A stretch of DNA of 64,000 nt from Candidatus Kapaibacterium sp. (GTDB lineage Bacteria; Bacteroidota; Ignavibacteria; Kapaibacteriales; HRBIN21): NCBI GenBank assembly GCA_938084565.1, contig CALKEU010000013.1, forward strand, positions 8,987-72,986, read 5' to 3'. Below, one piece after another: positions 60,134-64,000 of this stretch. Positions within the stretch are counted from its first letter, which is position 1. Each line of letters starts with the position of its first letter. The notes beneath the pieces are model-generated. The model was not told the origin of the DNA, made no database searches, and worked only from the letters and a program-made list of their open reading frames with translations. The position numbers and the translations under genes are program-made.

Positions 60134-63100
60134 ATGCGTTCAAACTTTGTCTCTCTCATTGGGCTTTTCGTGGCAGCAGTCGTTGCTGCAGCACAGACAG
60201 TGGTCATCATTGGTACGGGAACGAGCACCAATACTGCGTATTCTTACCCTGCTCCTTATGGAAACTGGTATGGTGGTGCACGGCATCAGATACTAGTGAG
60301 GGCGTCTGAAATCCAGGCAGCGGGGGGATCGGCGGGATATATTACAAGTCTGGGCTTCAACGTGAGCGCAACCAATGGAATTGCTGCCCTGCAGAATTTC
60401 ACCATTAAACTGAAGCATACTACGGCTACGGACGTCACGGGATGGGATCTCAGCGGATGGACTACAGTGTACACAGTGAGCTCCTATACGGTGACTACAG
60501 GGTGGAATGTACACACATTTGCCACCCCCTTTGCGTGGGATGGGACTTCGAACCTCCTCATCGAAGTCTGTTTCAACAACCTGAGCTACACGTACAACGC
60601 TAGTACGTACTACACAACGACTTCGTATACGAGTGTGATCTACTACCGCAGTGACTACGACAACACGGTCTGCGGCGATATGTCCGGGTGTGACTGGTGC
60701 ACGTATACCTCCTCCAACCGTCCTAACATCCGCCTTACTATCCAGGCTGGGGCTCCGAATGATGCGGGCATCACAGCGATCACAGCTCCGGCTGTCCCAT
60801 TTGCTGCCGGGACGCAGAGCATTGCTGTACAGCTTAAAAACTACGGGACGAATACACTCACGAGCGTGACCATTAACTGGTCAGTGAACGGGACACTACA
60901 GACGGCATACAATTGGACAGGTTCGCTGGCAAGCGGGGCGACAACTACGGTGACTATAGGTAACTACACCTTTGCCCCTCGAACGCTCTATACCTTCCGG
61001 GTCTGGACAGCCAATCCAAATGGCGCTTCTGACGGGAATACGGCAAACGACACTCTCACTACCCAGCTCGGGGCAGCGTTGGCAGGAGCCTACACAATCG
61101 GAGGTTCGACACCGGATTTTACTACAGTTGTCCAGGCAGTTGATTATCTCCACAGGGCTGGGGTGCTGGATACAGTTCTTTTCCGCATTCGCAACGGAAC
61201 CTACAGCGGGCAGTTGGCGTTCGGAGCTATTCCGGGAGCAGGATCGGCTAACCGTCGTATCACCTTTGAGGCCGAGTCAGGCGATGCCACTACTGTAGTC
61301 ATCCAGGGCTCGAATACAAGTGCGGCGAACTACGTGGTGGCTCTCAATGGCACAGATTGGCTCACCTTCAGGAACTTGACCTTTACGAGCAATGGAACAA
61401 GCCCATACTATCGGGTAGTCTACCTGACGGGCGGTACAGAGAATATTACCTTTGACGGATGTGTGTTGAACGGTGGTCCTGCGATTTACTGGTACGGGCA
61501 GGAGGATGTGGTATTCTACTCCTCTGGCAATGCCTGTCACAATCTCACAGTGCGCGGCACTACGTTTAACGGGGGAAGTGTGGCTCTGTGGTTGGAATAC
61601 TATGCTGGTCCGCTCCAGGGGATTCAGATCTCAGGCAATACCTTCCAGGACTTCTACTGGGCTGGGGCGCTGATCACGTCTGCGCAGGCAGCACGCATTG
61701 ATAACAATGTCCTGCGAGCGCTCAGTGGGAGTGGATGGAACTATGGGTTGTACCTCTACAATCTGCCTGGGAGCTTCCGAGTTGAGCGGAACGTGATTTC
61801 ACTCGATGGAGGCTATGGGCTTTATCTTGACTGGCGTTCCAGCGCTGAGCCGACTGCGCTAGTTGTTAACAACGCAGTGCAGGTTGGGAGTGGCACGGCG
61901 AACTTCGCAGCGGGTATCTACATCTACTCGGCGAATGTGAATATCTACCACAACACTGTCTACATTGGCTCTAGCGATGCGTCGAGTGTTGCATTCTATG
62001 CTGACGGGTACCAGGGGGTGAGGGTGGTGAACAACATCTTTGTCAACGCAGGCGGTGGATATGCTTACCAGGGTTCTTCGTGGAGCGGCATTATAACCTC
62101 GGATTACAACAATCTCTACACCAGTGGCAGCTACATTGGTCAATGGGGCTGGACCGACTACACAGATTTGGCTGCGTGGCGAGCGGCAACAGGGTTGGAG
62201 GGGAACTCTGTAAGTGTCCTGCCTCCCTTTGCAGCTGATCGGTACCATCTGACGCAGGTGGAGGAGAACCTGTATGGGACCACAGCACTCTTGGCGGTAG
62301 TGTCGGAGGATATCGACGGCGAGCAGCGTCGGAATCCGTACATGGGGAGCGATGAGGTCATACCGGTCATTACTATTGTGCAGCAGCCGCAGGACACGGT
62401 CTACGGGTGCCAAGGATCGGACGTGACGTTTAGCGTGCAGGCTACCATTACCTTCAACGGCACTCTCTCGTACCAGTGGCTTCGCAATGGAGCTCCCATC
62501 CCCGAGGGCTATGACGGGCGGTTCTTTGGGACTACGACGCCTGTGTTGAGGATTTCGAATACCCAAGGTCAGGATGCAGGCAGTTATGCGTGCCTCATCA
62601 CGGGTAATAGCGGGGCAGATCCGGTGCTCTCTGACCTGTCGGAGCTCATCATTGCAGTGCCTCTGACGATTGTAGAGCATCCCACATCGGTGTTGACCTG
62701 TGTGGAGGGAGAAGCCGTTCTCCAGGTCATCGCCGATGGAACAGTTCTGGGCTACCAGTGGCAGAAGATGACGCCGCAGGGGTGGCAGGATATCACGGGT
62801 GCAACCTCTGCGATTTATCGCGTGACGAATGCCGACTATAGCCAGTCAGGGGCTTATCGCTGTCTGGTGTTTGGGACGTGTGGTACCGATACGGTTCCCA
62901 CAGAGGTAGCTATCATCTATGTTGCCGGCCCGACTCAGATTGTTTCTTCTCCTGACACAGTGGTTGTAGCGCTTGGGGGTCGGGCGGAGATGGAGGTAGA
63001 GGCGAACGTTGTGGGGGCGCCGCCGACGTATCAGGCGGAGTATCAGTGGTATCGTGGGGGGGTAGCGTTGGTGGATGGGGGTCGGATCAGTGGGGCGCGG

Positions 63101-64000
63101 TCCTCGCGGTTAGTCATTGAGCCGGTGGAGGCCGGGGACGTTGGGGGGGACTACTGGGTAGAGGTACGTGGGGTATGTGGGGTGGCTGAGCAGCGTGGGT
63201 ATGCGATTGTAGCGCCGGAAGTGCGGATAGTACGGCAGCCGGGAGGGGGGCGGTTTTGTGTTGGGTCGGCTGTGGAGTTATCGGTGGAGGTGGAGCTTGG
63301 GGGTGGGGCGCAGGGGGTTGAGTACCGGTGGCGGCGCAATGGGCAGCCGTTGGTCGATGGGGGCAATGTAAGTGGGGCTAGCAGTGCGCGGTTGCGAATA
63401 GAGCCGATTGGAGTCGGGGATGGTGGGCGGTATGATGTTGTGCTGCGGGTGTATCCGGGAGGGGGGGAGGTAGTGTCGCAGGGGGCTGAGGTCGTGGTAG
63501 TGGAGCCGGTACAGGTAGTACGGCAGCCTGTTGGGGGGCGGTGGTGTGAGGGGCAGACGATGGTTTTGGAGGTAGAGGCACAGGGTGGGGAGCAGTATCA
63601 GTGGTATCGGGATGGGCAGCCGATAGCGGGGGCGGTAGGTCGGCGGTATGAGAAGGTAGCCGAGGCAGGGGACGGGGGTCGGTACTGGTGTGTGGTGAGC
63701 AACGTGTGTGGGGAGGAGCAGACGGCCGAGGTGGTGGTGGAGGTTGTGCGGTTGCCGCGTCTGGTGCGTGATGTTCCGGCGGTGGTGCAAGTTGGGGTAG
63801 GGCAGACGTTGGTGTTGGAGGTTGAGGCCAGTGGGGATGGGATAGGGTATCAGTGGTATCGGGACGGGCAACCGATAGCGGGGGCGGTAGGTCGGCGGTA
63901 TGAGAAGGTGGCCGAGGCAGGGGATGCGGGGGTGTACTGGTGTGTGATTGGCAACGAGTGTGACACGATAGAGAGCGGGCGGGTACGGGTTGATGTTGTC
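60134..64000 (+). CDS. Giant secreted/surface protein, 3'-truncated (at least 1289 aa): N-terminal beta-sandwich, CARDB-like domain, right-handed beta-helix, at least six I-set Ig domains
   Basis: Hand translation from ATG 60134 gives MRSNFVSLIGLFVAAVVAAAQTVVIIGTG.., PFAWDGTSNLLIEVC, NDAGITAI..LKNYG, GAYTIGG, NIYHNTV..VVNNIF..SDYNNLY, and repeated YQW.R.G..D.G.Y.C, with no stop seen to the window end; absent from the supplied track. Confidence 0.9.
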   Translation, partial: MRSNFVSLIGLFVAAVVAAAQTVVIIGTGTSTNTAYSYPAPYGNWYGGARHQILVRASEIQAAGGSAGYITSLGFNVSATNGIAALQNFTIKLKHTTATDVTGWDLSGWTTVYTVSSYTVTTGWNVHTFATPFAWDGTSNLLIEVCFNNLSYTYNASTYYTTTSYTSVIYYRSDYDNTVCGDMSGCDWCTYTSSNRPNIRLTIQAGAPNDAGITAITAPAVPFAAGTQSIAVQLKNYGTNTLTSVTINWSVNGTLQTAYNWTGSLASGATTTVTIGNYTFAPRTLYTFRVWTANPNGASDGNTANDTLTTQLGAALAGAYTIGGSTPDFTTVVQAVDYLHRAGVLDTVLFRIRNGTYSGQLAFGAIPGAGSANRRITFEAESGDATTVVIQGSNTSAANYVVALNGTDWLTFRNLTFTSNGTSPYYRVVYLTGGTENITFDGCVLNGGPAIYWYGQEDVVFYSSGNACHNLTVRGTTFNGGSVALWLEYYAGPLQGIQISGNTFQDFYWAGALITSAQAARIDNNVLRALSGSGWNYGLYLYNLPGSFRVERNVISLDGGYGLYLDWRSSAEPTALVVNNAVQVGSGTANFAAGIYIYSANVNIYHNTVYIGSSDASSVAFYADGYQGVRVVNNIFVNAGGGYAYQGSSWSGIITSDYNNLYTSGSYIGQWGWTDYTDLAAWRAATGLEGNSVSVLPPFAADRYHLTQVEENLYGTTALLAVVSEDIDGEQRRNPYMGSDEVIPVITIVQQPQDTVYGCQGSDVTFSVQATITFNGTLSYQWLRNGAPIPEGYDGRFFGTTTPVLRISNTQGQDAGSYACLITGNSGADPVLSDLSELIIAVPLTIVEHPTSVLTCVEGEAVLQVIADGTVLGYQWQKMTPQGWQDITGATSAIYRVTNADYSQSGAYRCLVFGTCGTDTVPTEVAIIYVAGPTQIVSSPDTVVVALGGRAEMEVEANVVGAPPTYQAEYQWYRGGVALVDGGRISGARSSRLVIEPVEAGDVGGDYWVEVRGVCGVAEQRGYAIVAPEVRIVRQPGGGRFCVGSAVELSVEVELGGGAQGVEYRWRRNGQPLVDGGNVSGASSARLRIEPIGVGDGGRYDVVLRVYPGGGEVVSQGAEVVVVEPVQVVRQPVGGRWCEGQTMVLEVEAQGGEQYQWYRDGQPIAGAVGRRYEKVAEAGDGGRYWCVVSNVCGEEQTAEVVVEVVRLPRLVRDVPAVVQVGVGQTLVLEVEASGDGIGYQWYRDGQPIAGAVGRRYEKVAEAGDAGVYWCVIGNECDTIESGRVRVDVV
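63595..63962 (+). repeat. Direct repeat, period 252 bp (63595-63710 and 63847-63962), encoding the cores of Ig domains 5 and 6
   Basis: First 78 nt are 75/78 identical by hand alignment. Confidence 0.9.

Follow-up and report, generated by a model that had tools for sequence, protein, structure and literature searches.

A G-rich, coding-strand-biased 3' module in paralogous surface-protein genes of a Candidatus Kapaibacterium

The A-type gene and its compositional switch

The window analysed here is a stretch of 64,000 nucleotides from Candidatus Kapaibacterium sp. (metagenome-assembled genome (MAG) GCA_938084565.1, below G000), corresponding to positions 8987-72986 of contig C13. At its right-hand end, it carries a surface-protein gene whose coding strand switches abruptly from ordinary to extremely G-rich composition. 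The open reading frame (ORF), designated A-type, starts at window position 60134 on the plus strand and is open to the window end; 1289 of its 1376 codons are located within the window (60134-64000). The complete gene encodes 1376 residues, and its stop codon (codon 1377, C13:73248-73250) lies 61 nt from the contig end. Based on the ORF and its Pfam domains, the product is predicted to be a surface protein that leaves the cell via the type IX secretion system (T9SS).

The gene is composed of two parts, both on the plus strand. The unique 5' part (60134-62944), delimited by composition and Pfam domains, has an ordinary composition with a GC skew of 0.065. It encodes a signal-peptide-like N-terminus (hydrophobic by eye in the translation), a head domain, a right-handed beta-helix (residues 402-580, 61337-61873; Pfam PF13229, E 1e-13) and Ig-like domains 1 and 2. 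The best-scoring Ig_3 domain of the protein (residues 744-822, 62363-62599; PF13927, E 7e-35 for the protein) is located in this ordinary part. The second part is a G-rich module with a skew of 0.57 that occupies 62945-64000 of the window and comprises 1381 nt in total (C13:71931-73311); its limits are given by a match to contig C15 and by overlaps of contig ends (see below). It encodes Ig-like domains 3 to 7, a C-terminal sorting domain and the stop codon, and ends with a terminator (L001:2811-2847; locus L001 is C13:70449-73311). Within the module, an Ig_2 domain is found at residues 1137-1202 (63542-63739; PF13895, E 3e-22 for the protein). In addition, blastn detects an internal repeat of 160 nt at 63551-63710 with a second copy at 63800-63962 (self-match of C13:72537-72696 with C13:72786-72948), and in an alignment of 168 columns, Ig-like domains 6 and 7 share 85.7% identity.

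For the whole A-type protein, Pfam reports Beta_helix, CARDB (weak), Ig_3, I-set and Ig_2 domains, and some of the Ig domains lie within the G-rich part. The C-terminus matches TIGR04183 weakly (16.6 bits, E 0.0058; cut-off 23), and Pfam yields no match for the sorting domain of this tail at E <= 0.01. The tail can be aligned with the sorting domains of neighbouring paralogues. From the Pfam matches and this alignment, the Ig-like and sorting domains encoded by G-rich DNA are predicted to be still folded. Scans of L001 returned no Rfam match, no row in Tandem Repeats Finder and no promoter site at the boundary between the two parts, and a search of genome contigs for related loci found one distant actinomycete locus only, which is uninformative. 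Opposite the module, the minus strand at window 63278-64000 contains long ORFs of 197-240 residues with a high content of Pro, His and Thr. They are an expected by-product and not evidence of genes, because the C-poor sense strand yields few antisense stop codons.

A first-pass annotation of the window had described an abrupt switch to G-rich, C-poor coding DNA in one uninterrupted frame, accompanied by a shift in amino acids. Its five hand counts of G/C (15/17, 28/12, 28/10, 33/5 and 29/6) are exact, and the reading frame is unbroken across the switch. A two-segment likelihood analysis of G versus C places the change point at 62960 with a 2-lnL interval of 62952-62982, i.e. the change is abrupt and not gradual. 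At this point, G/(G+C) rises from 0.53 to about 0.77-0.78 and the GC skew from ~0.07 to 0.57; in windows of 200 nt the skew is 0.03-0.20 over 62000-62999 and 0.50-0.59 from 63000 to the window end. The 5' 2829 nt of the gene contain A.22, C.25, G.29 and T.23, the 3' 1299 nt A.15, C.14, G.51 and T.20 (G 50.6%, C 14.0%). At codon position 3, G increases from.30 to.60 and C decreases from.30 to.09. The amino-acid shift is real as well: Thr falls from 11.9% to 1.4%, Val rises from 8.4% to 20.8% and Gly from 10.7% to 17.3%, and Arg and Glu each reach 9.7%.

This switch is far beyond the genome's own variation. Across the 1.87-Mb genome (37,410 windows of 300 nt), the skew has a mean of -0.03, a standard deviation of 0.12 and a 99.9th percentile of 0.36. 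Only eight merged regions reach |skew| >= 0.40, and only two of them are longer than 1 kb: the A-type tail and C12:51-3050. Milder patches with a coding-strand skew of 0.4-0.5 are found at C14:12701-13150 and C16:2201-2700. By eye from the translations, they are the 5' ends of a pheT-like and a TonB-dependent-receptor-like ORF; their four-fold sites contain G.39-.50 and C.09-.12, and they are single-copy in the assembly. As milder, single-copy stretches, they were not counted as cases of the same phenomenon.

The second long region belongs to a gene of 1690 residues on the minus strand of C12 (C12:137-5209, L024), whose last ~2.9 kb have a skew of 0.52. This module is common to a paralogue with a different head on C14:1-2528 (L025). 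The change point is at C12:3034, and near-identity with C14 begins at ~C12:3064, i.e. within ~30 nt. The start of C12 forks via 141-nt overlaps into C8 and C5, a layout as in the A-type module. The C12-type module is unrelated to the A-type module and encodes other domains, among them a beta-helix (Pfam). This means, the skew is not specific to Ig domains. Against TIGR04183, the C12-type tail reaches 28.2 bits, above the cut-off of 23. As a side observation at this fork, C5:1-141 equals the reverse complement of C12:1-141 and the end of C8, and the C12-type repeat runs 133 nt past the stop codon, taking in the first ~70 nt of a co-directional ORF on C5. The C5-linked locus looks like the source of the duplication, because the C8-linked copy has a fragment of this ORF followed by unrelated sequence.

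Two module copies and their concerted evolution

The first-pass annotation had proposed that the 3' part is a constant, multi-copy segment with its own gene-conversion history, joined at one boundary to different 5' regions, and had predicted contig breaks at this place. The assembled sequences bear this out for two copies: the same module is joined to two different 5' parts at one boundary, and breaks are found there both in the MAG and in independent contigs. The start of C15 (reverse complement) encodes a paralogue with another N-terminal head, designated B-type. The A-type 5' part shares ~0.5-0.8 nucleotide identity with this paralogue; over 782 nt directly upstream of the module the value is 72%, and from C13:71931 (window 62945) onwards 135 of 136 positions are identical (C15:1-136, reverse complement, versus C13:71931-72066), where C15 ends. 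At the other side, the last 141 nt of C13 overlap exactly with C9:1-141 and with the reverse complement of the C4 end. Immediately beyond the terminator, the flanks on C9 and C4 part from each other, and each continues into a different gene of ~470 residues with an Ig array. In the assembly graph, C13:71931-73311 can thus be entered by two paths and left by two, as is typical of a two-copy repeat that has been collapsed, and the module appears to be present twice in the genome. Directly 3' of the Ig-array gene on C9, a 290-residue ORF (L027:1576-2445) resembles, by eye, a RecO-like recombination mediator.

The replication-associated GC skew of contigs C4, C5, C8, C9 and C12 to C15 is remarkably uniform and pronounced (about +-0.08 to 0.11 per contig). 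From the skew of the flanking contigs (about +-0.09), a pairing of C13 with the reverse complement of C4, and of the reverse complement of C15 with C9, can be deduced. Independent contigs (k=31) from two public runs, X1 and X2, both labelled marine metagenome, show their breaks at the same two positions as the MAG. In X2, the module is left by two contigs of ~2.96 kb with depths of 18.7 and 14.3, compared with 15.5 for the unique 5' part.

The architecture recurs in the genus. Close matches to the A-type module (60-73% amino-acid identity) were found in five of six congeners, whereas the best match in G001 is 35%. Of ten congener loci that were retrieved, nine end at a contig end within a stretch of |skew| 0.4-0.7, and the remaining one (G001) represents a different paralogue. 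This layout with broken contigs is shared by five of the six congeners. In G002 and G003, both types of 5' partner run into a module of the A-type family. In G003, each partner reaches 470 nt into its own copy, and the copies differ at 19 of 470 positions. The C12-type module is matched in four of six congeners, and both its 5' partner types were found in all five congeners searched.

Two relatives with single-contig genomes extend the comparison. In G009, two dispersed C12-type paralogues are 55-65% identical in their first ~2.4 kb; along the 3' part, where the skew is +0.2 to +0.35, they differ at only 4 of 3150 positions. Furthermore, a tandem pair of Ig-array genes shares 3.33 kb at 94% as a mosaic of 100% and ~90% identical blocks, with a skew of +0.25 to +0.46. 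Since both module families are found as two-copy modules within this single contig, the two-copy architecture is free of assembly ambiguity there. In G017 (L050 and L051, G017:C1:1118000-1148000), four tandem paralogues of 1234-1968 residues are 99-100% identical over ~4.4 kb. Outside the genus, eight loci with homologous Ig arrays lack a sustained skew, and the C12-type orthologues there have a 3' skew of -0.07 to +0.12 (16 genes from 13 genomes, ignoring one long antisense ORF in the G024 locus); two G039 genes are likewise ordinary.

Within the genus, the module copies evolve in concert. Over the first 400 nt of the module, paralogues within a genome are 0.95-0.97 identical (135/136 in G000) and sequences from different genomes 0.71-0.78. 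Over the 600 nt upstream, orthologues (0.66-0.75) tend to exceed paralogues (0.61-0.70), with overlapping ranges. This means, copies that are 95-100% identical within genomes diverge by 22-29% between congeneric species, which points to concert by recurrent gene conversion. The jump in identity coincides with the onset of skew in three of three genomes for the A-type family and in six of six for the C12/C14 family (in G005, identity is only 0.87-1.00). The conversion tract ends where homology ends, within about 15-30 nt of the composition flip. Mosaic tracts are seen in the blocks of the G009 tandem pair and in an identity island of the C12/C14 pair. In addition, GC at four-fold sites is higher in the tract than outside it:.71-.77 versus.58-.62 in G000,.81 versus.67 in G009 and.75 (homogenised part) versus.49 (unique 5' parts) in G017. 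By these sequence comparisons, partial concerted evolution bounded by the limit of homology is shown.

The module is under purifying selection (G000 versus G006: pN 0.157, pS 0.454) and evolves faster than the 5' part at the protein level (dN 0.176 versus 0.097 for the same pair). Between species, its divergence roughly equals or somewhat exceeds that of the 5' part (amino-acid identity 0.60-0.70 versus 0.68-0.75). For G000 and G006, pS amounts to 0.72 (5' part) and 0.45 (module). Identity at four-fold sites is.39 for the 5' part; for the module it is.64, with ~.51 expected from composition. Both lineages are still G-rich. Synonymous sites that are near saturation between species and nevertheless G-rich indicate that the G-rich state is maintained and not merely inherited. 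This bears on the idea that the tract is foreign DNA with the composition of its donor, acquired horizontally, or an assembly chimera at ~62965. The sharp break and the fact that the contig passes through a repeat node there would fit such an origin. Against it, five of six congeners possess an orthologous module that is joined to the same partners and has diverged to an ordinary extent, the composition is maintained at near-saturated synonymous sites, each G003 partner extends 470 nt into its own copy, and G009 displays the layout in one contig. Foreign or chimeric DNA is therefore hardly probable.

Other parts of the earlier proposal are not supported. It had suggested that different N-terminal modules are recombined onto the constant segment to diversify surface proteins. 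No sign of N-terminal shuffling was seen: the same two 5' partners accompany the module in every examinable congener, and orthologues show the same 5'-3' pairing with ordinary divergence. Instead of diversifying, the copies homogenise, and no further cassettes were found. A blastn search of the MAG for silent cassettes or further copies yields only the module itself, its internal repeat and the contig-end overlaps; as MAGs can lose repeats, further copies may have escaped. Contigs 90-95% similar to the module are present in neither X1 nor X2, and one contig of 95-99% similarity was found, in X1.

Nature of the strand bias

The base composition of four-fold sites is A.15, C.36, G.32 and T.17 for the genome and A.12-.14, C.08, G.63-.69 and T.09-.16 for the two modules. 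Among two-fold codons ending in a pyrimidine, the C:T ratio changes from 58:42 to about 26:74 in the modules, and codons ending in a purine increase their share of G from 70% to 94-95%. When the module proteins are recoded with the codon usage of the genome, a skew of 0.24-0.31 is expected versus 0.52-0.57 observed, so that about half of the skew is synonymous. Codon comparisons thus show a nucleotide-level pressure on the tract in which G is favoured, C is avoided and T is preferred over C where G is not synonymous. The 3' part of the C12-type pair in G009 agrees with this: four-fold G is.67 and C.14, while the amino-acid shift is much smaller. The synonymous shift precedes the amino-acid shift, the order expected under a nucleotide-level pressure.

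Selection on the protein, favouring a stalk rich in Val, Gly, Arg and Glu, or on translation through a special codon usage, might be considered because of the strong amino-acid change, which accounts for about half of the skew. The bias is strongest, however, at synonymous four-fold sites, and in G009 the synonymous shift is accompanied by a much smaller amino-acid shift. Moreover, the genes for EF-Tu, EF-G and ribosomal proteins have four-fold C of.38-.52 and prefer C-ending codons. This preference of highly expressed genes argues that translational selection is not the cause, and the higher dN of the module is not in favour of protein selection either. We consider this explanation very improbable.

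The orientation of the two copies is informative. The A copy is co-directional with replication, whereas the B copy is head-on (the plus strand of its contig has a skew of +0.10, and the gene is located on the minus strand). The unique part of the B copy has four-fold C.34 and G.26, and yet it carries the same G-rich module. In these genes, the skew is shown to be tied to the coding strand and not to the replication strand. The bias ends with the gene, at the stop codon or terminator. These two properties would fit transcription-associated mutational asymmetry alone, in which C and A are deaminated on the exposed non-template strand, R-loops amplify the effect and conversion merely spreads it to both copies. 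The changes at two-fold sites, C to T and A to G, would fit it as well. However, the 5' 2.8 kb of the same transcription unit are unaffected, the switch takes place within ~30 nt, and there is no promoter-like site at the boundary. Four-fold sites have moved to G and not to T, and C12-type orthologues outside the genus lack the sustained skew. Transcription alone is thus an unlikely source of the bias.

The first-pass annotation had invoked G-quadruplexes (G4) as promoters of recombination. Canonical G4 motifs are no commoner than composition predicts: the two modules contain 2 and 5, compared with 5.5+-1.9 and 7.5+-2.6 in composition-matched shuffles, and runs of G are at or near expectation. 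Several other ideas were rejected. An APOBEC-like signature is not present, as the remaining C lacks a dinucleotide context (G follows in.52-.53, at a G frequency of.47-.50). Y-family polymerases are absent from seven of seven genomes of the genus and present in the skewed G009; their loss does not track the skew. Reverse gyrase, considered as a marker of thermophily, has an above-cut-off match in none of five genomes. An origin from a diversity-generating retroelement (DGR) or another retroelement was dismissed since RVT_1 (PF00078) has no match in G000, a MAG rated 100% complete. The differences between the two G003 copies (AG 8, GT 4, CG 3, CT 3, AC 1) are not adenine-specific.

Conversion, strand asymmetry and related systems

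We propose, with moderate confidence in the reading as a whole, that the module is a conversion tract and that the pressure on it derives from conversion. The pressure would be a by-product of the conversion process and could be composed of two forces. The first would be GC-favouring repair of heteroduplexes; its signature alone is seen in G017, whose four-fold sites provide a clean case of GC-biased conversion as judged from composition. The second would be strand-specific loss of cytosine from a strand that is repeatedly single-stranded, either the non-template or the transferred strand. G would be the only base favoured by both forces, and amino acids would be dragged towards Val, Gly, Arg and Glu. 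The combination fits the order G >> A ~ T > C at four-fold sites and T > C at two-fold sites. Another source of asymmetry can be imagined. C:C mismatches escape MutS, G:G mismatches do not. Together with a fixed polarity of strand transfer, this difference would favour G or C on a given strand. Two MutS homologues are encoded in G000.

A number of observations weigh against this proposal. No conversion event, strand-transfer polarity or R-loop was observed directly. The excess of T over C at two-fold sites runs opposite to simple GC-biased conversion, and for the model to work, C-to-G or T-to-G transversions would have to occur continuously. In G017, the homogenised tract is unskewed (-0.16 to +0.08), which means that homogenisation by itself is not sufficient to produce skew. 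In three of six genomes, the C12/C14 pair has a ~120-nt upstream island of 97-100% identity that lacks sustained skew; in G000, this island is 100% identical and ordinary in composition. Past the terminator, the final 74 nt of the C12-type repeat have a skew of -0.21. Concerning the two copies themselves, the second one in G000 is assembled for 136 nt only, and the shared tail shows no doubling of depth (17.8 versus 15.5 for the unique 5' part in X2). For X1 and X2, depths were taken from contigs and not from reads. The k-mer depth of the module stays below doubling in both runs and is near or under that of the single-copy flank along most of its length. The values are inconsistent (13-22 versus 15.5 unique in X2; 18-48 versus 38 in X1) and were not used for copy number. 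The shortfall may be due to under-representation of G-rich DNA in short-read data, which may also explain the partial loss of the modules from congeneric MAGs.

The closest parallel is the vls system of Lyme-disease Borrelia (vlsE plus silent cassettes). According to a report on it, vls cassettes have an average coding-strand skew of 0.52, which the authors regard as selected, key to conversion and unexplained (PMC11499132). The two systems share a coding-strand skew of ~0.5 (here 0.52-0.57, compared with ~0 to 0.07 in the 5' parts) that is limited to the converting region, conserved across species despite divergence, contrary to the codon usage of the rest of the genome and without a conserved canonical G4 arrangement. 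There are clear differences as well. The vls locus contains contiguous, promoterless silent cassettes ~90% identical to the expressed one, whereas none were found here and both copies are full-length genes. Conversion at vls is unidirectional and diversifying, here it homogenises. The vls proteins are unrelated to the Ig-like, beta-helix and T9SS-tail proteins described above, and G+C is only mildly raised here. Borrelia is a host-restricted pathogen, the organism studied here is probably free-living.

From this parallel follows the main rival to the proposal, which is essentially the idea of the first-pass annotation and has been put forward for Borrelia vls: the skew might be an adaptation, with a G-rich non-template strand selected because it promotes recombination between copies via R-loops, G-quartet-type structures or strand pairing. 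Its magnitude and its restriction to the conversion-active region, both as in vls (PMC11499132), and its maintenance across species despite the divergence of the module would agree with such selection. On the other hand, G4 motifs do not exceed those of shuffled sequences, G017 homogenises its 4.4 kb without skew, identical tails confer no evident benefit, and the copies do not diversify. On balance, an adaptation seems rather unlikely.

Other systems resemble the modules in single features. A G-rich non-template strand is tied to recombination in the class-switch regions of vertebrate Ig genes and in the Neisseria pilE G4. The strand is the same here; class-switch regions, however, are non-coding repeats and the pilE element is a single 16-nt motif upstream of the gene, whereas the modules are 1.4-3 kb of functional coding sequence. 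DGRs likewise affect the C-terminal part of a surface protein and involve a two-copy DNA relationship. In contrast to them, no reverse transcriptase and no adenine-specific changes are found here, and the tract is 10-30 times longer. The system is neither of the vls type nor a DGR. Its general features are those of partial concerted evolution with GC-biased conversion: within a tract of defined limits, paralogues resemble each other more closely than orthologues do, identity is distributed as a mosaic and synonymous GC is raised. Ordinary GC-biased conversion increases G and C alike, as in G017; here, C is reduced to.08 and G raised to.63-.69 on one strand.

In paralogous genes for surface proteins, partial concerted evolution is a familiar phenomenon, and GC enrichment of converted tracts is known, too. 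Unusual is a one-strand bias of vls magnitude that is confined to the converted tract within tens of bases and conserved throughout a genus, and two modules unrelated to each other carry it in a bacterium that is small and probably free-living. A literature search on gene conversion in Kapabacteria yielded no paper, and among the papers listed for concerted evolution, GC skew, paralogues and biased conversion, none describes such a system by title or abstract. In practical terms, the modules fragment assemblies, parts of them go missing from MAGs, and domain models give lower scores because of the biased composition. They provide a second independent natural system that is graded among relatives, with no skew in G017, a skew confined to synonymous sites in G009 and the full skew in this genus. 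This graded series makes it testable whether conversion-linked skew is cause or consequence of conversion, a question that stands for vls as well. Tentatively, recurrent conversion may itself generate an extreme strand-specific composition, which could be termed strand-asymmetric biased gene conversion. If so, the skew of vls would be a trace left by conversion instead of an adaptation that serves it, and a sharp boundary of coding-strand skew within a gene would be a general marker, readable from sequence alone, of conversion-active surface-protein genes in bacteria and archaea.

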